Under the pieces are notes generated by a model, which saw only the letters and a list, made by a program, of their open reading frames with translations, searched no databases and was not told the DNA's origin. Below are positions 1-64,000 of a DNA stretch of 64,000 bases, one piece after another. The position numbers and the translations under genes are program-made. Source of the stretch: Eledone cirrhosa (Eukaryota); contig OZ024741.1 of the NCBI GenBank assembly GCA_964016885.1, positions 119,846,001-119,910,000 of the forward strand, in the 5' to 3' direction. How positions within the stretch are numbered: position 1 is the stretch's first letter; each line of letters opens with the position of its first letter.

Positions 1-1188
1 TCGATATCTATAACTATATGTATCTGTCGATATATCTATCTATATCTATATGTATATGTCGATATCTATATGTATATGTTGATATATATATATCTATATG
101 TATATCTATATGTATATGTCGATATCTATATCTATATGGATATGTCGATATCTATATCTATATGTATATGTCGATATCTATATCTCTATGTATATGTCGA
201 TATCTATATATATATGGCGATATCAATATCTCTATGTATATATCGATATCTATATCTATATTTATATGTCGATATCTATATGTATATGTTGATACTTATA
301 TCTAGATTTATATGTTGATATCTATATCTCTATATGTATGTCGATATCTATATCTATATCTATACGTATATGTCGATATCTCTATCTCTATCTATATGTT
401 GATATCTATATCTTTATGTGTACGTTGATATCTATATGTATATGTCGATATCTATATCTATATGTATATGTTGATACCTATATCTATATGTATATATCGA
501 TATCTATATCTATATGTATATGTAGATATCTATCTCTCTCTATATATGTTGATATCTATATCTCTATGTGTACGTTGATATCTATATCTATATGTATATG
601 TCGATATCTATATCTATATGTATATGTCGTATATGTTGACATCTATATCTATATCTATATGTATATGTTGATATCTATATCTATATGTATATGTCGATAT
701 CTATATCTATATCTATATGTATATGTTGATATCTATATCGATATCTAACTGTATATGTTGATATATATATCTATATGTATATGTCGATTTCTATATCTAT
801 ATCTATATCTATATCTATATGTATATGTCAATATTTATATCTATATGTATATGTTGATATCTATATCTATATGTATATGTCGATATCTATATGTATATGT
901 TGATATATATATCTATATGTATATGTATATGTCGATATCTATATCTATATGGATATGTAGATATCTATATCTATATCGATATGTCGATATTTATATCTAC
1001 ATGTTTATGTTGATATCTATATCTATATGTATCTGTTGATATCTATATCTCTATGTATATGTCGATATCTATATCTATATCTATATGTCGATATCTATAT
1101 CTATATGTATATGTTGATATCTATATCTATATGTATATGTTGATATCTATATGTATATGTATATATTGATATCTATATCTATATTTAT

Positions 1189-1581
1189 CGTTTTCGGTGC
1201 GCCTGGCCGACTGAACTCACTCGATATGCAAATTAGGCTGCTCAGCCGTTAATTTTCATAAGGAAAGTATATACTTTCGAACGTTCAACCATCTGGCAGA
1301 AGGGTATACGGTGCTGACGATAGCTAACAAGCTTGAAACTAGTACATCGTTCCTGTGTCAGTGTTGAAAAAAAAAAAGGTGACGTGGTAGCCTTAACACC
1401 ATACGGCATAAATCAGGCTGTCCGTTTCTTTACAAACGGACAAAGCGAACGTTATAATAAACGTTCGCTAAACTGATAGGTACATATATATATGTGTACC
1501 TGTATGTATATATATATATATATATATATGCATGCTACTGTACGTCTGTATACATATATGTATGTACGTATACATACATAC
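1189..1581 (+). mobile_element. Structured non-coding cassette in satellite, copy 1 (hammerhead-containing, retrozyme/Penelope-like non-autonomous element)
   Basis: Non-satellite sequence CGTTTTCGGTGCG...GTATACATACATAC with many hairpins and an internal (TA)n; repeated at 7453 and 10581; diverged homologue at 60438-60650 (-). Confidence 0.7.
1308..1350 (+). ncRNA. Minimal type-I hammerhead ribozyme, copy 1
   Basis: ACGGTG-CTGACGA-TAGCT AACA AGCTT-GAAA-CTAG-TA^-CATCGT: CUGANGA and GAAA boxes, 6-bp stem I (one G-U), stem II AGCT/AGCT, palindromic ACTAGT stem III, GUA triplet (cut predicted after 1344). Confidence 0.75.
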
Positions 1582-4500
1582 TTATATCTATATGTATTTG
1601 TTGATATCTATATCTATATCTATATCTATGTGTATATGTTGATACCTATATCGATATGTATATATTGATATTTATATCTACATGTATATGTTGATATCTA
1701 TATGTATATGTCGATATCTATATCTATATCTATATGTTCATATCTATATCTATATGTACATGTTGATAGCTATATCTATATGTATATGTATATGTAGATA
1801 TCTATATCTCTATGTATATGTCGATATCTACATCTATAACTATATGTTGATATCTATATCTATATGTATATGTTGATATCTATATTTATATCTATATGTG
1901 TATGTCGATATCTCTATCTATATGTATATGTTGATAGCTATATCTATATGTATATGTCGATATCTATATCTATATGTCGATAGCTATATCTATATGTATA
2001 TGTTGAAATCTATATCTATATGTATATGTATATGTCGATATCTATATATTTATGTATATGTCGATATCTATATCTATATATATATAATTATGTCGATATC
2101 TCTATCTCTATGTATATGTCGATATCTATATCTATATGTCGATATCTTATCTCCATGTATATATCGATATCTATATCTATATGTATATGTCGATATCTAT
2201 ATCTATATGTATATGTTGATACCTATATCTATATCTATATGTTGATATCTATATCTATATGTATATGACGATATCTATATCTATATGTATATGTTGATAT
2301 CTATATCTATATGTATATGTTAATATGTATATCTATATGTCGATATCTATATCTATCTGTATATGTTGATATCTATATCTATATTTATATGTCGATTTCG
2401 ATTTCTATATATATATCTATGTCTATATGTATATGTCGATATCTATATCTATATGTATATGTCGATATATATATCTCTATGAATATGTCGATATCTATAT
2501 CTATATTTATATGTATATATTGATATCTATATCGATATCTATATGTATATGTTGATATCTATATCTATATCTATATGTATATGTTGATATCTATATCTAT
2601 ATATATATCTATATGTATATGTTGATATCTATATCTAAATGTCGATATCGTTATATAACTGTATATGTTGATACATATAACTATATGTATATGTCTATAT
2701 CTATATCCATATCTATATCTATATGTATATGTCGATATCTATATCTATATGTGTATGTTGATATCTATGTTGATATCTATGTTGGTATCTGTATCGATAT
2801 TTATATCTATATGTATATATTACTATCTATACCTATATGTATATGTGGATATCTATATCTATATGTATATGTTGATATCTATATCTATATGTATATGTCG
2901 ATATCTATATGTATATGTTGATATATATATCTATATGTATATGTATATGTCGATATCTATATCTATATGCATATGCCAATATCTATATCTATATGTATAT
3001 GTCGATATTTATATCAATATGTTTATGTTGATATCAATATCGATATGTATCTGTTGATATCTATATGTATATGTATATGTTGATATCTATATCTATATGT
3101 ATTTGTTGATATCTATATCTATATCTATATCTATACGTATATGTTGATACCTATATCGATATGTATATATTGATATTTATATCTATATGTAAATGTTGAT
3201 ATCTATATGCATATGTCGATATCTATATCTATATCTATATGTTCATATCTATATCTATATGTACATGTTGATAGATATATCTATATGTATATGTATATGT
3301 TGATATCTATATCTCTATGTTTATGTCGATATCTACATCTATATGTCGATAGCTATATGTATATGTGTATGTTGATATCTATATGTATATGTTGATATCT
3401 ATATCAATATGTATATGTTGATATCTATATCTATATGTATATGTTGATATATATATCTATATGTATATGTATATGTCGATATCTATATCTATATGGATAT
3501 GTAGATATCTATATCTATATGTATATGTCGATATCTATATCTATATATATATATTTATGTCGATATCTATATCTCCATGTATATATCGATATCTATATTT
3601 ATATGTATATGTCGATATCTATATCTATCTGTATATGTTGATATCTATATCTATATGTATATGTCGATTTCTATTTCTATATCTATATCTATATCTATAT
3701 CTATATCTATATGTATATGTCGATATTTATATGTATATGTATATGTTGATATCTATATCTCTATGTGTATGTCGATATCTACATCTATATCTGTATGTAT
3801 ATATTGATATCTATATCTATATCTATATGTAGATGTTGATATCTATATCTATATGTATATGTTGATATCTATATCTATATCTATATGTATATTTTGATAT
3901 CTATATCTCTATATATATATCTATATCTATATGTTGACATCTATATCTATATGTCGATATCCTTATCTATCTGTATTTGTTGATACCTATAACTATATGT
4001 ATATGTGTATATCTATATCCATATCCATATCTATATGTATATGTTGATATCTATATCTAAATGTATATGTTGATACCTATATCTATATGTATATGTTGAT
4101 ACCTATATCTATATGTATATGTCGATATCTATATCTATATGTCAATATCTATCTCTATATCTACATGTCGATAGCTATATCTATATGTATATGTTGATAT
4201 CTATATGTATATGTATATGTTGATATCTATATGTATATGTATATGTTGATATCTATATGTATATCTCTATGTATATGTCGATATCTACATCTATATCTAT
4301 ATGTTGATATCTATATCTATATGTATATGTTGATATCTATATTTATATCTATATGTGTATGTCGATATCTATATCTATATGTATATGTAGATATCTCTAT
4401 CTATATGTATATGTTGATACCTGTATCTATATGTATATGTCGATATCTATATGTATATATATATGTCGATATCTTTATCTATATGTCGATAGTTATAGCT

Positions 4501-7452
4501 ATATGTGTATATTGATATCTATATCTATATTTATATGAATATATCTATATCTATATGTATATGTTGATATCTATATTTATATCTATATGTATATATCGAT
4601 ATCTATATCAATAGGTATATGTTGATATTTATATCTATATATATATGTATATATATATGTCGATATCTATATCTATATGTCGATAGTTATAGCTATATGT
4701 GTATATTGATATCTATATCTATATCTATATGTATATATCGATATCTCTATGTATATTTTGATATATATATATCTATATGTATATGTATATGTCGATATCT
4801 ATATATATGTTTATGTCTATATCTATATCTCTATGTATATGTCGATATCTATATCTATATGTCGATATCTATATCTCTATGTATATATCGATATCTATAT
4901 CTATATTTAAATGTCGATATCTATATCTATACGTATATGTTGATACCTATATCTATATCTATATGTTGATATCTATATCTCTATATGTATGTCGATATCT
5001 ATATCTATATCTATACGTATATGTCGATATCTATATCGCTATGTATATGTTTATATCTATATCTCTATGTGTATGTTGATATCTATATCTATATGTATAT
5101 GTCGTATATGTTGACATCTATATATATATCTATATGTATATGTCGATATCTATATCCATATGTATATGTTGATACCTATATCTATATGTATATGTTGATA
5201 TCTATAACTATATATATATCTATATGTATATGTTGATATCTATATCTATATGTCGATATCTATATCTATCTGTATGTGTTGATATCTATATCTATATATA
5301 TATCTATATGTATATGTTGATATCTATATCTATATGTCGATATCTATATCTATATGTGTATGTTGATATCTATATCTATATTTATATGTCGATATATATA
5401 TCTATATGTGTATGCTGAGATCTATGTTGATATCTATGTTGATATCTATATGGATATTTATATCTATTTGTATATGTTGATATCTATATATATATGTATA
5501 TGTCGATATCTATATGTATATGTTGATATATATATATATATATATATGTATATGTATATGTATATGTCGATATCTATATCTATATGGATATGTCGATATC
5601 TATATCTATATGTCGATATTTATATCTATATGTTTATGTTGATATCTATATCAATATGTATCTTTTGATATCTATATCTCTATGTATATGTCGATATCTA
5701 TATCTAAATCTATATGTCGATATCTATATCTATATGTATATGTTGATATCTATATCCATATGTATATGTTGATATCTATATGTATATGTATATGTTGATA
5801 TCTATATCTATATGTATATGTTGATATCTATATCTATATCTATATCTATATGTATATGTTGACATCTATAAGTATATGTCGATATCTATATTTATATCTA
5901 TATGTTCATATCTATATCTCTATGTATATGTTGATAGCTATATCTAAATGTATACGTATATGTCGATATCTATATCTATATCTATATGTTGATATCTATA
6001 TCTATATGTATATGTTGATATCTATATTTATATCTATATGTGTATGTCGATATCTATATCTATATGTATATGTAGATATCTATATCTATATGTATATGTC
6101 GATATCTATATGTATATGTTGATATATATATATATCTATATGTATATCTATATGTATATGTCGATATCTATATCTATATGGATATGTCGATATCTATATC
6201 TATATGTATATGTCGATATCTATATCTCTATGTATATGTCGATATCAATATATATATGGCGATATCAATATCTCTATGTATATATCGATATCTATATCTA
6301 TATTTATATGTCGATATCTATATGTATATGTTGATACCTATATCTAGATTTATATGTTGATATCTATATCTCTATATGTATGTCGATATCTATATCTATA
6401 TCTATATGTATATGTCGATATCTATAGCTATATGTATATGTCGATATCTATATCTCTATGTATATGTCGATATCAATATATATATGGCGATATCAATATC
6501 TCTATGTATATATCGATATCTATATCTATATTTATATGTCGATATCTATATGTATATGTTGATACCTATATCTAGATTTATATGTTGATATCTATATCTC
6601 TATATGTATGTCGATATCTATATCTATATCTATACGTATATGTCGATATCTCTATCTCTATCTATATGTTGATATCTATATCTCTATGTGTACGTTGATA
6701 TCTATATGTATATGTCGATATCTATATCTATATGTATATGTTGATACCTATATCTATATGTATGTATCGATATCTATATCTATATGTATATGTAGATATC
6801 TATCTCTCTCTATATATGTTGATATCTATATCTCTATGTGTACGTTGATATCTATATGTATATGTCGATATCTATATCTATATGTATATGTCGTATATGT
6901 TGACATCTATATCTATATCTATATGTATATGTTGATATCTATATCTATATGTATATGTCGATATCTATATCTATATCTATATGTATATGTTGATATCTAT
7001 ATCGATATCTAACTGTATATGTTGATATCTATATCTATATGTATATGTCGATTTCTATATCTATATCTATATCTATATCTATATGTATATGTCAATATTT
7101 ATATCTATATGTATATGTTGATATCTATATCTATATGTATATGTCGATATCTATATGTATATGTTGATATATATATCTATATGTATATGTATATGTCGAT
7201 ATCTATATCTATATGGATATGTAGATATCTATATCTATATCGATATGTCGATATTTATATCTACATGTTTATGTTGATATCTATATCTATATGTATCTGT
7301 TGATATCTATATCTCTATGTATATGTCGATATCTATATCTATATCTATATGTCGATATCTATATCTATATGTATATGTTGATATCTATATCTATATGTAT
7401 ATGTTGATATCTATATGTATATGTATATGTTGATATCTATATCTATATTTAT

Positions 7453-7765
7453 CGTTTTCGGTGCGCCTGGCCGACTGAACTCACTCGATATGCAAATTAG
7501 GCTGCTCAGCCGTTAATTTTCATAAGGAAAGTATATACTTTCGAACGTTCAACCATCTGGCAGAAGGGTATACGGTGCTGACGATAGCTAACAAGCTTGA
7601 AACTAGTACATCGTTCCTGTGTCTGTGTTGAAAAAAAAAAGGTGACGTGGTTGCCTTAACACCATACGGCATAAATCAGGCTGTCCGTTTCTTTACAAAC
7701 GGACAAAGCGAACGTTATAATAAACGTTCGCTAAACTGATAGGTACATATATATATGTGTACCTG

Positions 7766-7819
<54 letters not shown>

Positions 7820-7868
7820 TGCTACTGTACGTCTGTATACATATATGTATGTACGTATACATACATAC
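7453..7868 (+). mobile_element. Structured cassette in satellite, copy 2
   Basis: Near-identical to 1189-1581; differs mainly in A-run and (TA)n length. Confidence 0.7.
7572..7614 (+). ncRNA. Minimal type-I hammerhead ribozyme, copy 2
   Basis: Identical to 1308-1350. Confidence 0.75.
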
Positions 7869-10580
7869 TTATATCTATATGTATTTGTTGATATCTATAT
7901 CTATATCTATATCTATGTGTATATGTTGATACCTATATCGATATGTATATATTGATATTTATATCTACATGTATATGTTGATATCTATATGTATATGTCG
8001 ATATCTATATCTATATCTATATGTTCATATCTATATCTATATGTACATGTTGATAGCTATATCTATATGTATATGTATATGTAGATATCTATATCTCTAT
8101 GTATATGTCGATATCTACATCTATAACTATATGTTGATATCTATATCTATATGTATATGTTGATAGCTATATCTATATGTATATGTCGATATCTATATCT
8201 ATATGTCGATAGCTATATCTATATGTATATGTTGATATCTATATCTATATGTATATGTATATGTCGATATCTATATATTTATGTAGATGTCGATATCTAT
8301 ATCTATATATATATAATTATGTCGATATCTCTATCTCTATGTATATGTCGATATCTATATCTATATGTCGATATCTTATCTCCATGTATATATCGATATC
8401 TATATCTATATGTATATGTCGATATCTATATCTATATGTATATGTTGATACCTATATCTATATCTATATGTTGATATCTATATCTATATGTATATGACGA
8501 TATCTATATCTATATGTATATGTTGATATCTATATCTATATGTGTATGTTAATATGTATATCTATATGTCGATATCTATATCTATCTGTATATGTTGATA
8601 TCTATATCTATATTTATATGTCGATTTCGATTTCTATATATATATCTATGTCTATATGTATATGTCGATATCTATATCTATATGTATATGTCGATATATA
8701 TATCTCTATGAATATGTCGATATCTATATCTATATTTATATGTATATATTGATATCTATATCGATATCTATATGTATATGTTGATATCTATATCTATATA
8801 TATATCTATATGTATATTTTGATATCTATATCTAAATGTCGATATCGTTATATAACTGTATATGTTGATACATATAACTATATATATATGTCTATATCTA
8901 TATCCATATCTATATCTATATGTATATGTCGATATCTATATCTATATGTATATGTTGATACCTATATCTATATGTATATGTCGATATCTATATCTATATG
9001 TCGAAAGCTATATCTATATGTGTATATTGATATCTATATTTATATGTATATGTTGATATCTATATCTATATGTATATGTTGATATCTATATGTATATGTA
9101 TATGTCGATATCTATATCTATATGTAGATGTTGATATCTATATCTATATGTTTATGTATATGTCGATATCTATAACTATATGTATCTGTCGATATATCTA
9201 TCTATATCTATATGTATATGTCGATATCTATATGTATATGTTGATATATATATATATCTATATGTATATCTATATGTATATGTCGATATCTATATCTATA
9301 TGGATATGTCGATATCTATATCTATATGTATATGTCGATATCTATATCTCTATGTATATGTCGATATCAATATATATATGGCGATATCAATATCTCTATG
9401 TATATATCGATATCTATATCTATATTTATATGTCGATATTTATATGTATATGTTGATACCTATATCTAGATTTATATGTTGATATCTATATCTCTATATG
9501 TATCTCGATATCTATATCTATATCTATATGTATATGTCGATATCTATATCTATATGTATATGTCGATATATATATCTCTATGTATATGTCGATATCAATA
9601 TATATATGGCGATATCAATATCTCTATGTATATATCGATATCTATATCTATATTTATATGTCGATATCTATATGTATATGTTGATACCTATATCTAGATT
9701 TATATGTTGATATCTATATCTCTATATGTATGTCGATATCTATATCTATATCTATACGTATATGTCGATATCTCTATCTCTATCTATATGTTGATATCTA
9801 TATCTCTATGTGTACGTTGATATCTATATGTATATGTCGATATCTATATCTATATGTATATGTTGATACCTATATCTATATGTATATATCGATATCTATA
9901 TCTATATGTATATGTAGATATCTATCTCTCTCTATATATGTTGATATCTATATCTCTATGTGTACGTTGATATCTATATCTATATGTATATGTCGATATC
10001 TATATCTATATGTATATGTCGTATATGTTGACATCTATATCTATATCTATATGTATATGTTGATATCTATATCTATATGTATATGTCGATATCTATATCT
10101 ATATCTATATGTATATGTTGATATCTATATCGACATCTAACTGTATATGTTGATATCTATATCTATATGTATATGTCGATTTCTATATCTATATCTATAT
10201 CTATATCTATATGTATATGTCAATATTTATATCTATATGTATATGTTGATATCTATATCTATATGTATATGTCGATATCTATATGTATATGTTGATATAT
10301 ATATCTATATGTATATGTATATGTCGATATCTATATCTATATGGATATGTAGATATCTATATCTATATCGATATGTCGATATTTATATCTACATGTTTAT
10401 GTTGATATCTATATCTATATGTATCTGTTGATATCTACATCTCTATGTATATGTCGATATCTATATCTATATCTATATGTCGATATCTATATCTATATGT
10501 ATATGTTGATATCTATATCTATATGTATATGTTGATATCTATATGTATATGTATATGTTGATATCTATATCTATATTTAT

Positions 10581-10894
10581 CGTTTTCGGTGCGCCTGGCC
10601 GACTGAACTCACTCGATATGCAAATTAGGCTGCTCAGCCGTTAAATTTCATAAGGAAAGTATATACTTTCGAACGTTCAACCATCTGGCAGAAGGGTATA
10701 CGGTGCTGACGATAGCTAACAAGCTTGAAACTAGTACATCGTTCCTGTGTCAGTGTTGAAAAAAAAAAAGGTGACGTGGTCGCCTTAACACCATACGGCA
10801 TAAATCAGGCTGTCCGTTTGTTTACAAACGGACAAAGCGAACGTTATAATAAACGTTCGCTAAACTGATAGGTACATATATATATGTGTACCTG

Positions 10895-10942
<48 letters not shown>

Positions 10943-10991
10943 TGCTACTGTACGTCTGTATACATATATGTATGTACGTATACATACATAC
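10581..10991 (+). mobile_element. Structured cassette in satellite, copy 3
   Basis: Near-identical to 1189-1581. Confidence 0.7.
10700..10742 (+). ncRNA. Minimal type-I hammerhead ribozyme, copy 3
   Basis: Identical to 1308-1350. Confidence 0.75.
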
Positions 10992-13900
10992 TTATATCTA
11001 TATGTATTTGTTGATATCTATATCTATATCTATATCTATGTGTATATGTTGATACCTATATCGATATGTATATATTGATATTTATATCTACATGTATATG
11101 TTGATATCTATATGTATATGTCGATATCTATATCTATATCTATATGTTCATATCTATATCTATATGTACATGTTGATAGCTATATCTATATGTATATGTA
11201 TATGTAGATATCCATATCTCTATGTATATGTCGATATCTACATCTATAACTATATGTTGATATCTATATCTATATGTATATGTTGATATCTATATTTATA
11301 TCTATATGTGTATGTCGATATCTCTATCTATATGTATATGTTGATAGCTATATCTATATGTATATGTCGATATCTATATCTATATGTCGATAGCTATATC
11401 TATATGTATATGTTGATATCTATATCTATATGTATATGTATATGTCGATATCTATATATTTATGTATATGTCGATATCTATATCTATATATATATAATTA
11501 TGTCGATATCTCTATCTCTATGTATATGTCGATATCTATATCTATATGTCGATATCTATATCTCCATGTATATATCGATATCTATATCTATATGTATATG
11601 TCGATATCTATATCTATATGTATATGTTGATACCTATATCTATATCTATATGTTGATATCTATATCTATATGTATATGACGATATCTATATCTATATGTA
11701 TATGTTGATATCTATATCTATATGTATATGTTGATATGTATATCTATATGTCGATATCTATATCTATCTGTATATGTTGATATCTATATCTATATTTATA
11801 TGTCGATTTCGATTTCTATATATATATCTATGTCTATACGTATATGTCGATATCTATATCTATATGTATATGTCGATATCTATATCTCTATGAATATGTC
11901 GATATCTACATCTATATTTATATGTATATATTGATATCTATATCGATATCTATATGTATATGTTGATATCTATATCTATATCTATATGTATATGTTGATA
12001 TCTATATCTATATATATATCTATATGTATATGTTGATATCTATATCTAAATGTCGATATCGTTATATAACTGTATATGTTGATACATATAACTATATGTA
12101 TATGTCTATATCTATATCCATATCTATATCTATATGTATATGTCGATATCTATATCTATATGTGTATGTTGATATCTATGTTGATATCTATGTTGGTATC
12201 TGTATTGATATTTATATCTATATGTATATATTACTCTCTATACCTATATGTATATGTGGATATCTATATCTATATGTATATGTTGATATCTATATCTATA
12301 TGTATATGTCGATATCTATATGTATATGTTGATATATATATCTATATGTATATGTATATGTCGATATCTATATCTATATGCATATGCCAATATCTATATC
12401 TATATGTATATGTCGATATTTATATCTATATGTTTATGTTTATATCAATATCGATATGTATCTGTCGATATCTATATGTATATGTATATGTTGATATCTA
12501 TATCTATATCTATTTGTTGATATCTATATCTATATCTATATCTATACGTATATGTTGATACCTATATCGATATGTATATATTGATATTTATATCTATGTG
12601 TATATGTTGATATCTATATGCATATGTCGATATCTATATCTATAGCTATATGTTCATATCTATATCTATATGTACATGTTGATAGATATATCTATATGTA
12701 TATGTATATGTTGATATCTATATCTCTATGTTTATGTCGATATCTACATCTATATGTCGATAGCTATCTCTATATGTGTATGTTGATATCTATATGTATA
12801 TGTTGATATCTATATCAATATGTATATGTTGATATCTATATCTATATGTATATGTTGATATATATATCTATATGTATATGTATATGTCGATATCTATATC
12901 TATATGGATATGTAGATATCTATATCTATATGTATATGTCGATATCTATATCTATATATATATATTTATGTCGATATCTATATCTCCATGTATATATCGA
13001 TATCTATATTTATATGTATATGTCGATATCTATATCTATCTGTATATGTTGATATCTATATCTATATGTATATGTCGATTTCTATTTCTATATCTATATC
13101 TATATCTATATCTATATGTATATGTCGATATTTATATGTATATGTATATGTTGATAACTATATCTCTATGTGCATGTCGATATCTACATCTATATCTGTA
13201 TGTATATATTGATATCTATATCTATATCTATATGTAGATGTTGCTATCTATATCTATATGTATATGTTGATATCTATATCTATATGTATATGTTGATATC
13301 TATATCTATATATATATATCTATATCTATATGTTGATATCTATATCTATATGTCGATATCCTTATCTATCTGTATTTGTTGATACCTATAACTATATGTA
13401 TATGTGTATATCTATATCCATATCCATATCTATATGTATATGTTGATATCTATATCTAAATGTATATGTTGATACCTATATCTATATGTATATGTTGATA
13501 CCTATATCTATATGTATATGTCGATATCTATATCTATATGCATATGTCAATATCTATATCTATATCTACATGTCGATAGCTATATCTATATGTATATGTT
13601 GATATCTATATGTATATGTATATGTTGATATCTATATGTATATGTATATGTTGATATCTATATGTATATCTCTATGTATATGTCGATATCTACATCTATA
13701 TCTATATGTTGATATCTATATCTATATGTATATGTTGATATCTATATTTATATCTATATGTGTATGTCGATATCTATATCTATATGTATATGTAGATATC
13801 TCTATCTATATGTATATGTTGATACCTGTATCTATATGTATATGTCGATATCTATATGTATATACATATGTCGATATCTATATCTATATGTCGATAGTTA

Positions 13901-16900
13901 TATCTATATGTGTATATTGATATCTATATCTATATTTATATGAATATATCTATATCTATATGTATATGTTGATATCTATATTTATATCTATATGTATATA
14001 TCGATATCTATATCAGTAGGTATATGTTGATATTTATATCTATATATATATGTATATGTATATGTCGATATCTATAAATATATGTATCTGTCGATATCTA
14101 TATCTATATCTATATCTATATGTATATATCGATATCTCTATGTATATGTTGATATATATATATCTATATGTATATGTATATGTCGATATCTATATCTATA
14201 TGTCGATATCTATATCTCTATGTATATATCGATATCTATATCTATATTTAAATGTCGATATCTATATCTATATGTATATGTTGATACCTATATCTATATC
14301 TATATGTTGATATCTATATCTCTATATGTATGTCGATATCTATATCTATATCTATACGTATATGTCGATATCTATATCGCTATGTATATGTTTATATCTA
14401 TATCTCTATGTGTATGTTGATATCTATATCTATATGTATATGTCGTATATGTTGACATCTATATATATATCTATATGTATATGTCGATATCTATATCCAT
14501 ATGTATATGTTGATACCTATATCTATATGTATATGTTGATATCTATATCTATATATATATCTATATGTATATGTTGATATCTATATCTATATGTCGATAT
14601 CTATATCTATCTGTATGTGTTGATATCTATATCTATATATATATCTATATGTATATGTTGATATCTATATCTATATGTCGATATCTATATCTATCTGTAT
14701 ATGTTGATATCTATATCTATATATATATCTATATGTATATGTTGATATCTATATCTATATGTCGATATCTATATCTATATGTGTATGTTGATATCTATAT
14801 CTATATTTATATGTCGATATATATATCTATATGTGTATGCTGAGATCTATGTTGATATCTATGTTGATATCTATATGGATATTTATATCTATATGTATAT
14901 GTTGATATCTATATATATATGTATATGTCGATATCTATATGTATATGTTGATATATATATATATGTATATGTATATGTATATGTCGATATCTATATCTAT
15001 ATTGATATGTCGATATCTATATCTATATGTCGATATTTATATCTATATGTTTATGTTGATATCTATATCAATATGTATCTTTTGATATCTATATCTCTAT
15101 GTATATGTCGATATCTATATCTAAATCTATATGTCGATATCTATATCTATATGTATATGTTGATATCTATATCCATATGTATATGTTGATATCTATATGT
15201 ATATGTATATGTTGATATCTATATCTATATGTATATGTTGATATCTATATCTATATCTATATGTATATGTTGATGCCTATATCGATATGTATATATTGAT
15301 ATTTATATCTATATGTATATGTTGATATCTATAACTATATATACATATTTATGTCGATATCTATATCTCTATGTATATGACGATATCTATATCTATATGG
15401 CGATATCTATATCTCTATGTATATATCGATATCTATATCTATATGTATATGTTGATATTTATATCTATATGTGTATGTCGATATCTATATGCATATGTAT
15501 ATGTTGACATCTATATCTATATGTATATGTAGATATCTATATCTATATGTCGATATCTATATCTATCTGTATATGTCGATTTCTATATCTATATCTATAT
15601 GTATATGTCGATATTTATATCTATATGTATATGTTGATATCTATATCTATATGTATATATCGATAATTACATCTATATCTATATTTATATAATGATATCT
15701 ATTTCTATATCTATATGTATATGTTGATACCTATATCTATATGTATTTGTTGATATCTATATCTATATGTATATGTTGATATCTATATCTATATCTATCT
15801 GTATATTTTGATATCTATATCTATATGTATATGTCTATATCTATATCCATATCTATATCTATATGTATATGTCAATATCTATATCTATATGTATATGTTG
15901 ATACCAATATCTATATGTATATGTCGATATCTATAACTATATGTGTATGTTGATATCTATATGCATATGTTGATATATATATCTCTATGTATATGTATAT
16001 GTCTATATCTATATCTATATGGATATGTCGATATCTATATCTATATATATATGTCGTTATTTAAATCTATATGTTTATGTTAATATCTTTATCTATATAT
16101 ATCTGTTGATATCTATATCTATATGCATATGTCAATATCTATATGTATATGTCGATATCTATATCTATATGTATATGTTGATATCTATATCTATATGTAT
16201 ATGTTGATATCTATATGTATATGTATATGTTGATATCTATATGTATATGAATATGTTGATATCTATATCTATATGTATATGTTGATATCTATATCTATAT
16301 CTATATGTATATATTGATACCTATATTGATATGTATATATTGATATTTATATCTATATGTATATGTTGATATCTATATGTATATGTCGATATCTATATTT
16401 ATATCTATATGTTCATATCTATATCTGTATGTATATGTTGATAGCTATATCTATATGTATATATATATGTCGATATGTATATCTATATCTATATGTCGAT
16501 ATCTATAACTATATGTATATGTTGATATCTATATCTATATATATATGTTTATGTCGATATCTATATCTCTATGTATATTACGATATCTATATCTATATGG
16601 CGATATCTATATCTCTATGTATATATCGATATATATATCTATATGTATATGTTCATATTTATATCTATATGTATATGTCGATATCTATATTTATATGTTG
16701 ATATATATATCTATATGTATATGTATATGTCGATATCTATATCTATATGGATATGTCGATATCTATATCTATATGTATATGTCGATATCGATATCTCTAT
16801 GTATATGTCGATATCTATATATATATGTTTATGTCGATATCTATATCTCTATGTATATGACGATATCTATATCTATATATCGATATCTATATCTCTATGT

Positions 16901-19887
16901 ATATATTGATATCTATATCTATATGTATATGTCGATATCTATATCTATATGTATATGTTGAGACCTATATCTCTATGTATATGTCGATCTCTATATCTAT
17001 ATGTATATGTTGTATATGTCGATATCTATATGCATATGTATATGTTGACATCTATATCTATATGTATATGTTGATATCTATATCTATATGTATATGATGA
17101 TATCTATATCTATATCTATATGTATATGTTGATATCTATATCTATATGTTGATATCTATATCTATATGTATATATCGATAATTACATCTATATCTATATT
17201 TATATATTGATATCTATTTCTATATCTATATGTATATGTTGATACCTATATCTATATGTATTTGTTGATATCTATATCTATATGTATATGTTGATATCTA
17301 TATCTATATCTATATGTATATGTCGATATCTATATCTATATGTATATGTTGATATCTATATCTATATGTATATGTTGATATCTATATCTATATATATATC
17401 TATATGTATATGTTGATATCTATATCTATATGTATATGTCGATATCTGTATCCATATCTATATCTATATTTATATGTCGATATCTATAACTATATGTGTA
17501 TGTTGATATCTATATGCATATGTTGATATATATATCTCTATGTATATGTATATGTCTATATCTATATCTATATGGATATGTCGATATCTATATCTATATG
17601 TATATGTCGATATTTATATCTATATGTTTATGTTGATATCTTTATCTATATGTATCTGTTGATATCTATATCCATATGCATATGTCAATATCTATATCTA
17701 TATGTATATGTCGATATCTATATCTATATGTATATGTTGATATCTATATGTATATGTATATGTTGATATCTATATGTATATGTATATGTTGATATCTATA
17801 TGTATATGAATATGTTGATATCTATATCTATATGTATATGTTGATATCTATATCTATATCTATATGTATATATTGATACCTATATTGATATGTATATATT
17901 GATATTTATATCTATATGTATATGTTGATATCTATAAGTATATGTCGATATCTATATTTTCATATCTATATCTGTATGTATATGTTGATAGCTATATCTA
18001 TATGTATACGTATATGTCGATATCTATATCTATATCTGTATGTTGATATCTATATCTATATGTATATGTTGATATCTATATTTATATCTATATGTGTATG
18101 TCGATATCTATATCTATATGTATATGTAGATATCTATATCTATATGTATATGTTGATACCTATATCTATATGTATATGTTTATATCTATATCTATATGTA
18201 TATCCACATGTCGCTATCCATATCTATATGTATATGTCGATTTCTATATTTATATGTCGATAGCTATATCTATATGTGTATGTAGATATCTATATGTATA
18301 TGTTGATATCTATATGTATATTTCGATATCTATATCTATATGTCGATAGCTATATCTATATGTGTATATTGATATCTATATCTATATGTATATGTCGATA
18401 TCTATATCTATACGTATATGTTGATATCTATATTTATATCTATATGTATATGTCGATATCTATATCTATATGTATATGTTGATATCTATATTTATATGTA
18501 TATGTTGATATATATATCTATATGTATATGTATATGTCGATATCTATAACTATATGTATATATCGATATCTATATCTATATCTATATCTATATCTATATG
18601 TTGATATCTATATCTATATATATATGTATATGTCGATATCTATATGTGTATGTTGATATATATATCAATATGTATCTGTTGATATCTATATCTATATGCA
18701 TATGTCGATATCTATATCTATATGTATATGTCGATATCTATAACTATATGTATATGTCGATATCTATATCTATATCTATATGTATATGTCGATATCTATA
18801 TCTATATATATATATGTTTATGTCGATATCTATATCTCTATGTATATGTCGATATCTACATCTATATGTATATGTTGATATCTATATGTATATGTATATG
18901 TCGATATCTATATCTATATATCGATACCTATATCTATATGTGTATGTTGATATCTATATCTATATGTATATATCAATATCTATATCTATATGTATATATC
19001 GATATCTATATCTATATGTATATATCGATATCTGTATCTATATCTATATGTATATGTCGATATCTATATGTATATGTTGATATATATATCTATATGTCTA
19101 TGTCGATATATATATCTATATGGATATGTCGATATCTGTATCTATATGTATATGTCGATATCTATATCTATATGCATATGTCGATATCTATAACTATATG
19201 TATCTGTTGATATCTATATCTATATGCATATGTCGATATCTATATCTATATGTATATGTCGATATCTATATCTATATGTATATGTCGATATCTATATATC
19301 TACGTGTATGTCGATATCTATATATATATGTATATGTAGATATCTATATCTCTGTGTATATGTTGATATCTATATCTATATGTATATGTTGATATCTATA
19401 TGTATATGTTGATATATATATCTATATGTCTATGTCGATATATATATCTATATGGATATGTCGATATCTGTATCTATATGTATATGTCGATATCTATATC
19501 TATATGCATATGTCGATATCTATAACTATATGTATCTGTTGATATCTATATCTATATGCATATGTCGATATCTATATCTATATGTATATGTCGATATCTA
19601 TATCTATATGTATATGTCGATATCTATATATCTACGTGTATGTCGATATCTATATATATATGTATATGTAGATATCTATATCTCTGTGTATATGTTGATA
19701 TCTATATCTATATGTATATGTTGATATCTATATGTATATGTTGATATATATATCTATATGTCTATGTCTATGTCGATATCTATATCTCTATGTGTACGTT
19801 TATATCTATATCTATATGTATATGTCGATATCTATATGTATATGTCGATATCTTTATCTATATCTATATCTATATGTCGATATCTAT

Positions 19888-55089: not shown

Positions 55090-55168
<79 letters not shown>

Positions 55169-55170
<2 letters not shown>

Positions 55171-55229
55171 GTATATGTCGATATCTATATCTATATCTCT
55201 ATGTCGATATCTATATCTATATGTATATA
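55169..55229. repeat. Terminal stub of the TYGATATC/TATATC satellite
   Basis: ATGTATATGTCGATATCTATATC... same monomers and orientation as 1-19887. Confidence 0.9.
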
Positions 55230-57155: not shown

Positions 57156-57286
57156 ATGGTTAATAAGGAAAGTTATATATATTTACATATACTTACACGC
57201 ACACAAGCACACACACATACATACATAGACATAGTTGGTCTTGAACTTATACTGTTGAAACGGAAGGGCTTTTCCTATGGGACTAT

Positions 57287-57290
<4 letters not shown>
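57156..57290. repeat. ~135-bp dispersed repeat abutting (TA)n, copy 1
   Basis: Near-identical direct copy at 63577-63715. Confidence 0.85.
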
Positions 57291-57349
<59 letters not shown>

Positions 57350-57560
57350 TATTTACGTATCGAGAAAGAGAAAAAAAAGGGGAGGATAGGTGATACATAT
57401 GGTTATTTGCCAAGTAGCGTATGCCAAAGGTGCTCAATACTAGTGCCGGCAGTATTAAATATTCGAAGTGTTAATATTTAGTGGGCTAGAGAGTTAGGAG
57501 AGCGTAAGCACGTGGGAAACCTCTGGTAATGAGGTAATTATATTGTATTGATTTTTATAC

Positions 57561-58465: not shown

Positions 58466-59383
58466 CCTGTATCAATAATTTTAGAATGTTTTTTTTGTGA
58501 TAATACATGGTTGGATCACTGAAGCTACCTTATACCTTCTTAAAGATACATTTTATGATTATTGTCTTTTTACTTATGTATTTTCTTAGTTACCACTTTC
58601 TTTAATCTTGCCCAACTTGATAAACTCCTTGAATTGCTCCCTAATTAAATTACTTAAATTGCTTAGATTATTGTATCTATTATGCCTAAGTTGTATCTGT
58701 TGAAGCAGCCCTTTGAAAATTCATCGGATATCCCAAATACCGTAATTTTTAATTTTTAACTTTTAATGTATAATTTTCCTCAATTCGTTTTTATATTTAT
58801 CCTTAAAGGCTCTCTAAAATTTTAATTCTTCGAAGGGTCTCTCGGAAGAAGTTCCTATTGGAAATATTAAAGGGGCCTTTTCTGAGAGATTTATGGAAGG
58901 CTCTCTGAATTAACCTCTAATTGATTAGTTTCTTTCAACCTAGTTTTCAATTCAGTTTTCAGAATTTTGTAAACGTGATCTCGGGGGAAGAAGGTTTTTT
59001 TCTTTCGGAAAAAATTTTTTTTCTCTAGAAGAAATTTCATAGGAACTTTATATATTTTTTAGGGAAACTTTATATTTTTATTTTCTTATTTTATTAGCCT
59101 CTTAATTTTCTTCTAGACTAATAGGTTTATTGGAGCCTGTAAGCTTTATGCACTCATTGAGGGATTTTCTGGGGTGCTTCTGCGGGACCCCAAGTCTTTT
59201 AGTTTAATGTTGATGCGTAAATTATATATTTTTGTCTAATTTTTAAACTTCAATCCCTGACCCCGACAACTAATATAAAAGAGCCCCCCTTAAAGCGGAG
59301 TTGCTGATGTATACAACAATTTCAAACTGCTAGCCTTGAGTGATACGTTGATGTAAACAATGATCTTGCAATCACATGTTATA

Positions 59384-59430
59384 TGCCTTGATAAGTCCCA
59401 CCATGGGGTCGGACGAAACGGCTGTCGGCA
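59384..59430 (+). ncRNA. Type-I hammerhead ribozyme, U3-A8 core variant
   Basis: TGCC-TTGATAA-GTCC..GGAC-GAAA-C GGCT G-TC^-GGCA: perfect stems I and II, GUC triplet; AATAAA follows immediately. Confidence 0.7.
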
Positions 59431-59583
59431 ATAAACTTGTTATAATGTCATAATAGTTCCTTTGTTCTTTTTCACTAATATTTCTGCTCTGCGTATACGC
59501 ATAGAGCTTAACTAGCTACCGTCACATATTTGGTAAGTCAGACGTGATCATCGCGATTCACATACGACCTACCATACATCTTA

Positions 59584-59852: not shown

Positions 59853-60189
59853 ATAAGTAAAAGAATTAATGAAAGAGTTACAAGCCGTTAAAACATATTT
59901 TTATATAGCTCTTACACATGTTTCGCCCAATGGGGCTCGTCAGAGGCAGATATTAAAGGCAAAGTTTTTCATTATAGACCCTAATAGGGTAAAATAATAG
60001 TTTTACATCACCGTGCATATTAAATTTAAATGTTAATGCACGGCGATGTAAAACTATTATTTTACCCTATATTAAAAACTTTGCCTTTAATATTTGTTCC
60101 GATGAATCCCATTGGGCGAAACATGTGTAGAAGCTATATAAAAATATGTTTTAACGGCTTGTAACTCTTTCATTAATTATTTTGCTTAT
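59853..60189. mobile_element. ~337-bp imperfect palindrome, Penelope-like terminal fragment in inverted arrangement
   Basis: Arms are reverse complements around ~60025; each arm has a hammerhead core. Confidence 0.75.
59907..59947 (-). ncRNA. Minimal type-I hammerhead ribozyme (Penelope type)
   Basis: Minus strand GCCT-CTGACGA-GCCC CATT GGGC-GAAA-C ATGT G-TA^-AGAGC; the mirror copy at ~60096-60134 has a mutated core (CCGATGA). Confidence 0.72.
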
Positions 60190-60348: not shown

Positions 60349-60437
<89 letters not shown>

Positions 60438-60442
<5 letters not shown>

Positions 60443-60650
60443 TATGTATACGTACATACATATATGTATACAGACGTACAGTAGTATGTATATATATATA
60501 TATACATACATGCACACATATATATATGTACGTATGGATTCACCGAACATTATTATAATGCTCGGTGTGTTTGTAAACAAACATCCCGAATGAAGCCGTA
60601 CAGTGTCTAGCAACCATCGTTGCTCATTTGTTCAACACTGATAAAGGAAC
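60438..60650 (-). mobile_element. Diverged dispersed homologue of the 3' part of the satellite cassette
   Basis: Reverse complement GTTCCTTTATCAGTGTTGAA...TACGGC...TTTACAAAC...TTATAATAA...CTACTGTACGTCTGTATACATATATGTATGTACGTATACATAC aligns with 1349-1581. Confidence 0.8.
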
Positions 60651-60747
60651 ATACATATATGTACGTATACATACTTATATTTAAGTAACAGCCGTACTAA
60701 GAGTGAGAAATGAAATTTCGTTTCATTTTTTCCGTTTATATATATAT

Positions 60748-60884
60748 ATATTTATTAAAATAACCGATTAAAATTTAAGCAAAGAATCGCTGCTTTCATC
60801 CTTAACGGGATCTTCTGAAGATCCCGTTAAGGGTGAAAGCAGCAATTCTTTGCTTAAAATTTAATCTGTTATTTTAATAAATAT
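60748..60884. repeat. 137-bp near-perfect palindrome centred on 60816; third partial arm at ~61077-61126
   Basis: ...TTAACGGGATCTTC T GAAGATCCCGTTAA...; contains a CTGAAGA..GAAA partial hammerhead core. Confidence 0.85.
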
Positions 60885-60977: not shown

Positions 60978-61079
<102 letters not shown>

Positions 61080-61963
61080 AAATAACAGATTAAAGTTTAA
61101 GCAAAGAATCGCTGCTTTCACCCTTATATATTTATAAACATTAACTAGCAAATGGCATGTAACAGGAATCTGTTGGCTATATTGTTAGTGTAAATAGTTT
61201 TAGAAATGTGAGTGAACCAGCTCTTTTCCTGATCTTCACATCCGAAATAAAGTTTATAACACTTTTGTTTGATATCAATTTATGTTACTGGGATTTTAAA
61301 GATTGATCATCACATAAATAACATTAGAACAGACAGTTCCACGGAAAAATAAGGCTGAAGATGAATAAAATGCTGGTATAGAATCCATAGAGCGTAACAC
61401 ACTAGCTATTAACACTGTTGCATTTGCAAGCAGACTGGCTTAGTGCTGCTCTTCACAGAAACAACTTGTCCATATCTGACCAGATCAAAACGTTTCCACA
61501 TGCATAGGAGTAATCTGTAAATTTCATTTCATTCCATACCTGTAACCAAAGGTTCCAAACTTAACTATCCCACCTTTCCTTGTTCGCACAGAGTGTGTCT
61601 AGGACTACGCTAACTGTTTTATATATTTTAAAGTTGACAATCCGTTCTGGGAGGAAATTTGGCTGCTATTTCTAACACGATGAGCTACCATATAGCCTAT
61701 CAATTCCTCAGTGAACTAAAGCTCTGAGAGAAATATGTCCATGTTATTTATCATGGCATTTTGTTAACATAACCTTTACATTGAATATGAAATACTAATA
61801 ATGCTTGATTGTGTGTGCAATTACTTAATTAGTCGATAATGAAAACGGATAACTATATATATATATATATATATAAATGAGAGGTATAGAGATTGTTTTA
61901 GCAAGAAGCTAACGGCATTCTATAACATATATGCGACTATAACGTCAAGATGGGAAAAGTAGT

Positions 61964-63477: not shown

Positions 63478-63778
<301 letters not shown>

Positions 63779-63835
63779 GTGGGAAAGTAAAAAATCGGAG
63801 AATAGACCGTTAAAACATGTTTATTTAAAACAGCA

Positions 63836-63872
63836 ACTACGTACGTTTCGCCCAGTTGGGCTTCTCAAGGGC
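63836..63872 (-). ncRNA. Hammerhead core, U3-A8 variant, weak stem I
   Basis: Minus strand TTGAGAA-GCCC AACT GGGC-GAAA-C GTAC G-TA; flank CCGTTAAAACAT resembles 59885-59896. Confidence 0.55.
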
Positions 63873-64000
63873 ATAAATAATCACAAGTGTTCCTTATATT
63901 GCTCGGAAAGAGTTTTTGGGGTTAAATCCACATCAAGGTTCATTGCTCGCAATGTGTGTGTGTGTGTACGTACTGAATGTATGGATGTGTAAGTGTGCGT

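Follow-up and report, generated by a model that had tools for sequence, protein, structure and literature searches.

A 64,000-nucleotide window of Eledone cirrhosa DNA was analyzed, and it probably carries copies of a ~460-nt retroelement that is high-copy, non-coding and non-autonomous and belongs to the non-LTR retrozyme / Penelope-like element (PLE) type. The unit consists of a minimal type I hammerhead, a domain 3' of the cut that is structured as a single strand, and a 3' extension that rejoins the segment upstream of the hammerhead, so that no space is left in the unit for a reverse transcriptase (RT) ORF. The model monomer is 458 nt long, with a GC content of 37% and a longest ATG ORF of 55 aa. 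In its predicted fold 69% of the bases are paired, and the circular fold has a z of -8.3, a value inflated by TA-rich palindromes. It is likely that the element is real, abundant and structured, and that it works like a retrozyme mobilized by PLEs. On present evidence the family is a well-formed example within a known class, not a new system.

Three cassette copies of the element are located on the plus strand within a TA-rich 26-nt satellite (1-19887), which has higher-order periods of 3.1 kb and 9.4 kb and carries the cassette along. Copy 1 (1183..1584) contains about 400 nt of the ~460-nt monomer; its 3' end is the short end, without an inverted arm. Its start was moved from 1190 to ~1183, since the preceding letters belong to the family in contigs. 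Copy 2 (7447..7871), which lies in a higher-order duplication of the satellite, and copy 3 (10575..10994) have the same flanks as copy 1. The three cassettes, with matches from 1190, 7454 and 10582, share 99% identity across 1186-1480, and they are spaced at multiples of the ~3.13-kb higher-order period of the satellite. The common flanks indicated that the cassettes derive from one insertion, duplicated along with the 3.1/9.4-kb higher-order repeat, and therefore that only two independent family copies are present in the window. No tandem head-to-tail copies were found within the window.

The upstream segment of the cassette (1183..1308, plus strand) is unstructured (fold z -0.16 for 1190-1310) and promoter-like. 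It contains a word at 1226-1233, which we take to be an octamer promoter motif, and TATATA near 1269 (~1269-1274), both 5' of the hammerhead. The octamer, a post hoc choice, occurred in 139 of 20000 shuffles. By these motifs, 1183-1308 is a possible internal promoter.

The hammerhead (1309..1349, plus strand) has a GUA triplet and a predicted cut after A1344. Its parts are a 5-bp helix I, a CUGANGA core, a helix II of 4 bp with a U.U mismatch beneath it, GAAA, and a palindromic 2-nt loop III. A descriptor written around the motif itself had no match in the window outside the three cassettes, and none in 20000 shuffles. Public reads from 4 of 23 listed runs (X1, X4, X9 and X21) were compared with positions 60430-60750, of which 60430-60542 was masked as a repeat. 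The 3' half of the hammerhead was conserved in reads or contigs of all four runs, and the read consensuses differed only at tolerated positions (C/U at N7, and GUA/GUU at the triplet). The motif is without the usual G10.1-C11.1 pair, which is listed as typical for PLE hammerheads in the available text of Cervera and De la Pena (2014, PMC4209133). Rfam gave no match at the gathering level, and at E<=10 the cassette returned only AT-hairpin miRNA noise, without a hammerhead. The missing pair and the lack of an Rfam match together suggest that the hammerhead may be weak or dead. Further hammerhead-like remnants were noticed within nearby (TA)n.

The second independent copy lies at 60438..60650 on the minus strand. 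Over the GC-richer part (1349-1460 vs 60650-60550) it is 69% identical to the cassette, with an E of 1e-4 to 3e-6 within the window, and the local score of 84 exceeded the maximum of 34 among 2000 dinucleotide shuffles. The homology of these two sequences, which an earlier note on this DNA had proposed, was thereby confirmed, and the stem strings quoted in that note were all present where it had placed them.

The domain 3' of the cut is made up of a series of hairpins on the plus strand. Helix H1 (1359..1401) surrounds hairpin H2 (1378-1392) and is followed by a conserved linker (1402..1408), by hairpins H3 (1419-1442) and H4 (1444-1469) within 1419..1469, and by a region with H5, an internal (TA)n and a terminal AC-rich hairpin (1478..1581) that adjoins the short 3' end. 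Pairing was compared between two independent copies only, with the pairs taken from cassette copy 3. In H4 (1444-1469 vs 60566-60542) 10/10 pairs were kept, with two double changes and one A-T to G.T. In H2 (1378-1392 vs 60624-60609) 6/6 pairs were kept relative to copy 3, with two double changes and one single change; cassette copy 1 itself has a G.A mismatch in this hairpin. H2 and H4 together kept 16/16 pairs with four double changes (P(kept) 8e-4 under random placement of the same substitutions), four helices kept 30/32 (P 7.5e-5, same model), and the addition of a fifth, poorly kept closing helix (1412-1416/1473-1477, with only 3/5 pairs kept) gave 33/37 (P 8e-4), all of these P values being optimistic because the helices were chosen after both copies had been seen. 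Compensatory change, which the earlier note had claimed for three stems, was upheld for H2 and H4. The third stem, H3, differs between cassette and far copy not by substitutions but by a symmetric 4+4-nt deletion, one in each arm. A third variant of H4, read by hand in a 40-nt read insert, keeps all 10 pairs and has another double change and two G.U.

The fold z was -5.2 for the cassette and -3.7 for the far copy. The far copy folds to -35.1 kcal/mol on the hammerhead strand vs -29.3 on the other strand, and in the helices G.T outnumbers A.C by 3 to 2 in copy 3 (both A.C terminal) and by 4 to 1 in the far copy. The better fold on the hammerhead strand and the excess of G.T over A.C fit selection on one single strand. 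Among the read variants listed, 5 of 50 stem positions and 12 of 48 other positions were affected, a weak avoidance of stems (Fisher P 0.06). Three of the five stem variants keep pairing and two break a pair, and for one of these two a partner variant was listed.

The linker was kept (6/6 identical to the far copy) although its local partner was not. It is predicted to form the 5' strand of a long-range helix, pairing over 8 bp with 60690-60697 in the 3' extension (predicted pair probability 0.81-1.0). This predicted helix encloses H3-H5 and the terminal hairpin, and a 12-bp hairpin at 60705-60731 closes off the predicted domain. The controls were modest: any 8-bp complement occurred in 358/3000 shuffles and the energy of the linker duplex in 33/3000. 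An A>T variant at 60690 (24% of the X1 depth) would restore pairing with A1408 of the cassette. An origin of the hairpins from SECIS or tRNA was dropped, as the helices are short and a tRNA search of the unit found none. The covarying hairpins are best read as a cis RNA signal for a trans-acting protein.

In the far insertion, (TA)n flanks a head-to-head pair of arms, both truncated at the 5' end. The forward arm (60438..60650, minus strand) is truncated at +5 from the hammerhead cut and has its short 3' end in the (TA)45 target microsatellite (60351..60440); the other flank is a short (TA)n at 60738-60750. The inverted arm (60649..60739, plus strand) joins the forward arm with a 2-nt overlap. 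The family sequence goes on along 60649-60739, which makes the inverted arm ~90 nt long and gives it a one-sided extension (60681..60739, plus strand) of ~60 nt past the 3' end of the forward arm; in contigs the extension continues into the start of the cassette. The inverted cap at 60651-60680 that the earlier note described is present, but it is merely the first third of this arm, which reaches ~60739. PLE insertions are described as having an inverted 5'-truncated arm, a one-sided tail and a bias to (TA)n or microsatellites (Craig 2021, PMC8557442; Arkhipova 2013, PMC3846280). By analogy, the inverted arm with its one-sided extension is a PLE-type insertion structure, and the cap, as a standard part of such structures (Craig 2021, PMC8557442), is not a feature of cleavage. 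Both independent insertions (n=2) lie in TA-rich repeats, in keeping with a PLE-like (TA)n target bias, and further inverted joints were seen in reads.

A classic 37-nt tail ending at 60717 was considered and rejected as a double-digest library artefact. X21 is a RAD library whose reads run from CATGC to AATT sites (60589 and 60714), presumably cut with SphI and MluCI. The 32,905 X21 reads that apparently end at 60717-19 begin at CATGC and stop at the AATT at 60714, and the letters after this pile look random (0.47, then 0.20). An AATT-to-AATT chimera from 60717 to 60593 was among the joints listed.

A DNA element, either a MITE (~30-nt TIRs, TA target) or one like Helitron/DINE-1, would also suit the inverted ends of 30 nt, the flanking TA, the microsatellite within the element and its perfect hairpins. 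Covariation would then come from the structure of single-stranded DNA or from template switching during palindrome repair, and template switching could likewise account for the symmetric deletion in H3. The reads argue against such an element. At most ~146 reads cross 60650/60651 away from read ends (126+20 at 60650, with 114 having other letters), vs ~12,900 at 60642, and the near absence of this junction rules out an amplified MITE. No fixed, TIR-bounded unit has been amplified: the cassette has no cap or 5' inverted end, and the arms are joined at many positions. Helitrons and DINE-1-like elements have a fixed 5' TC with a hairpin and CTRR at the 3' end, or else inverted repeats in subterminal position, and this candidate was rejected on the variable 5' ends and head-to-head arms. 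In addition, the stems retain G.T pairs that repair of a palindrome would remove, and the strand concerned is also the one on which the hammerhead is conserved. A DNA element, which the earlier note had named as a refuting outcome (MITE/Helitron termini), is thus largely refuted and very improbable.

Contigs that run beyond 60739 enter the start of the cassette, which indicates that the retrozyme-like unit closes on itself as an ORF-less monomer of ~460 nt. Among the loose ends listed, those at 60723/60739 entered the first letters of the cassette in 40 contigs of X1 and in 2+1 of X4, two runs with different organism labels. Such joins of the 3' extension to the start of the unit would be expected of tandems or of inserts derived from circles; the contig loose ends behind this possible organization agreed at 0.69-0.95. 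The copies could instead be 3' stubs (pLTR pieces) of an autonomous PLE, in which case the contigs that close the unit would stem from the minority of copies that have internal deletions. Among PLE debris, such stubs with inverted arms are the most frequent form, as far as the available text of Craig (2021, PMC8557442) and Cervera (2014, PMC4209133) goes, and closure relies on the top loose ends among those listed. Against this, the listed loose ends of X1 and X4 past 60723-60739 that resemble known sequence all enter the cassette start, and the cassette begins at the very point where the long arm of the far copy ends. We regard the stub explanation as improbable and favor a closed, non-autonomous unit.

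An LTR, a PBS or a tRNA part was not found in the unit, as fits a short, non-coding retrozyme, nor was an ORF for PLE RT plus GIY-YIG, so that it is not an autonomous EN+ PLE. Among 14 long ORFs scanned in the window GIY-YIG was absent, so that none of them offers an autonomous partner; those ORFs showed RT, APE and zf-RVT. The family accounted for 57,414 of 12,467,656 RAD reads in X21, a share that does not equal copy number, and for 7084 contigs in X1; two further runs with other organism labels gave 51 and 10 family contigs. In public runs labelled as RNA the word share was only 0.06. Exact-pattern scans gave 0 loci in metagenome contigs, viral contigs, and bacterial and archaeal genomes. 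These read counts, together with the pairwise covariation, bear out the dispersed family proposed in the earlier note; its copies are abundant, and it is on a single strand that their hairpins are kept. A literature search found no paper on the family, which may already be catalogued in Repbase or Dfam; the supplements of Li 2026 and Cervera 2020 may list relatives.

The 5' ends of the copies bear on whether hammerhead-cleaved linear RNA is the usual template, with ends piling up at the cut. With the cut after A1344, the homology of the far copy begins with GTTCC at +5, so that 4 nt after the cut are missing, as the earlier note had observed. Two joints, 60579/60650 (7 reads) and 60582/60650 (27 reads), likewise end the arm at +5; each has 2 starts, creates no AATT site and displays no letters between the arms. 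Reference homology itself stops at +5, which draws joints to that position. A 60649/60649 fold-back (35 reads) creates AATT and may be a ligation chimera. The arm ends in the joints listed, these included, are scattered over -32, -20, +5, +6, +16, +31, +48, +53, +64, +73, +76 and +81 relative to the cut, with some more near the base of H4. The chance that one of two ends falls within 5 nt of the cut is ~5%, and the end lies at +5, not +1.

The hammerhead is also crossed by family sequence. The cassette reads through it, and among the loose ends listed at 60650 its 3' half was entered in all four runs (24 contigs in X1, 6175 reads in X21, 2 in X4 and 3 in X9), so that the far copy belongs, as a truncated member, to a family with a hammerhead. 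The RAD design favors long copies among the 6175 read-through reads, which therefore give no true histogram of 5' ends, and by the same bias short copies that start at the cut would be under-counted. Hammerhead cleavage was moreover dispensable for insertion in vitro (Frangieh 2024, PMC11167929, in the text available). These results indicated that read-through copies certainly exist, and that an excess of arm ends at the cut is possible. Cleaved RNA as the usual template is unlikely, and the claim of the earlier note that the family is mobilized as a self-cleaved RNA was weakly sustained by the far copy and the two joints at +5, and weakened by the scattered ends and by read-through.

Several other elements lie near the two insertions. 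At 59853-60189 is a fold-back with arms ~85-90% identical and a minimal hammerhead (core 59943, minus strand), next to (TA)n, with a damaged second hammerhead near 60100 on the plus strand; its right arm extends ~160 nt to the (TA)45 that holds the far copy. It is a separate PLE-like family, and a decayed hammerhead-like remnant at 63807-63873 (minus strand), adjoining (TA)n, is 72% like it. A hammerhead-like motif at 59383-59432 (plus strand), upstream of (TA)n, has one core change and matches Rfam Hammerhead_1 at E 0.3; in all, two neighboring motifs reach an Rfam hammerhead E of 0.3. A 137-nt near-perfect fold-back at 60748-60884 has a CTGAAGA...GAAA-like center and, with a partial third copy at 61077-61126 after (TG)n, is possibly another PLE stub. 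Runs of (TA)n are frequent in the AT-rich region from 55 to 64 kb, which includes two ~235-nt elements (57156-57389 and 63577-63805), 91% identical, that end in (TA)n. Between them and the satellite array that holds the cassettes, 19888-55168 is occupied by ~35 kb of LINE copies that are nested, 96-99% identical and of recent duplication, with (TTA)n ends and RT, APE and zf-RVT domains. We take these RT-encoding elements (~19.9-55.2 kb) to be L1/Tx1-like LINEs. The pile lies inside the TA-rich satellite, which resumes at 55167-55228, and this suggests satellite-targeted insertion.

A route by which the unit may move can be proposed from these features. Its transcript, which perhaps starts in the promoter-like upstream segment, would be a circle or a head-to-tail multimer. 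The hairpin domain would be bound by a PLE reverse transcriptase/GIY-YIG protein acting in trans, which would nick TA-rich DNA, and cDNA would begin internally, either at the AC-rich terminal hairpin (the short end) or ~60 nt further 3' (the long end). In an anole PLE, internal RT starts were reported at two sites in an AC-rich stem-loop, with RNA needed up to +172 and starts at 111-118, i.e. ~55-60 nt further 3' (Frangieh 2024, PMC11167929, in the text available). Synthesis of cDNA would stop at variable points, giving variable 5' truncation. Most long copies would read through the hammerhead from a template that is uncleaved, multimeric or re-ligated; in a minority, to which the far copy perhaps belongs, synthesis may run off a 5' end made by cleavage, with the final 4 nt lost when the arms are joined.

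PLEs have been proposed as the movers of retrozymes without direct proof, and in the available text of Cervera (2020, PMC7229834) and Li (2026, bioRxiv 10.64898/2026.07.22.740005) the link is inferred from the similarity of pLTRs and from co-occurrence. The way in which animal retrozymes move and the purpose of the PLE hammerhead are unsettled in the literature accessible to us, and a high-copy family such as this one, with PLE scars, diverged subfamilies and hairpins that covary, makes both testable. We suggest only tentatively, and with less than even confidence, that an ORF-less retrozyme with a PLE scar, a hairpin domain recognized by RT and +5 copies made from cleaved RNA points to mobilization in trans by PLEs. 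If this were true, a PLE integration scar on a retrozyme would be direct genomic evidence of such mobilization by PLE proteins. For PLE RT, the multi-hairpin domain with its long-range helix on either side of the short 3' end would be a natural RNA recognition element. The +5 sub-population would be an in vivo record of reverse transcription from RNA cut by the hammerhead, and the PLE hammerhead would gain a traceable role.

Among known systems, one close to the present family is newt satellite 2, which has an octamer motif in its promoter. That satellite is a hammerhead repeat with an internal snRNA-type promoter (via PMC2220036), and the family resembles it as a hammerhead repeat that possibly has its own promoter, with the octamer 88 nt upstream of the core. 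It differs from it in that no proximal sequence element was identified in the putative promoter.

The metazoan non-LTR retrozymes share with the family, as far as their published descriptions were available, an ORF-less unit of a few hundred nucleotides, a low GC content (37% here), a type I hammerhead whose helix III is short and palindromic, a highly self-paired predicted circle, and dispersed monomers. The U.U mismatch at the base of helix II recurs in the axolotl retrozyme HHR_Amex2, which cleaves weakly. The ~460-nt unit is larger than the 170-400 nt given by Cervera and De la Pena (2020, PMC7229834) and falls inside the 51-972 nt of Li, Clavereau and Pollet (2026, bioRxiv 10.64898/2026.07.22.740005). 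Unlike retrozymes, the element has no tandem array in the window, and one of its copies bears an inverted arm of the PLE type with an extension on one side, neither of which is reported for retrozymes in the available parts of Cervera 2020 and Li 2026.

Compared with the minimal hammerheads of metazoan PLEs, in the text available of Cervera (2014, PMC4209133), the motif agrees in its 4-5-bp helix I, its palindromic 15.2-16.2/loop 3 and a predicted action as a dimer, and departs from them in a short helix II (4 bp) and in the pyrimidine mismatch that replaces G10.1-C11.1. The unit differs from EN+ PLEs (Penelope/Poseidon, Neptune, Hydra, Naiad) in having no RT/EN ORF, and its extension of ~60 nt contrasts with the classic tail of 30-40 nt. 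Naiad is described as being without canonical hammerheads, so that the hammerhead here argues against a Naiad partner. In the features of insertion themselves the likeness to EN+ PLEs, on the descriptions accessible to us, covers strong 5' truncation, an adjacent inverted and 5'-truncated arm, a one-sided extension, a (TA)n target, a hammerhead upstream of the 3' end, and an AC-rich stem-loop at that end.
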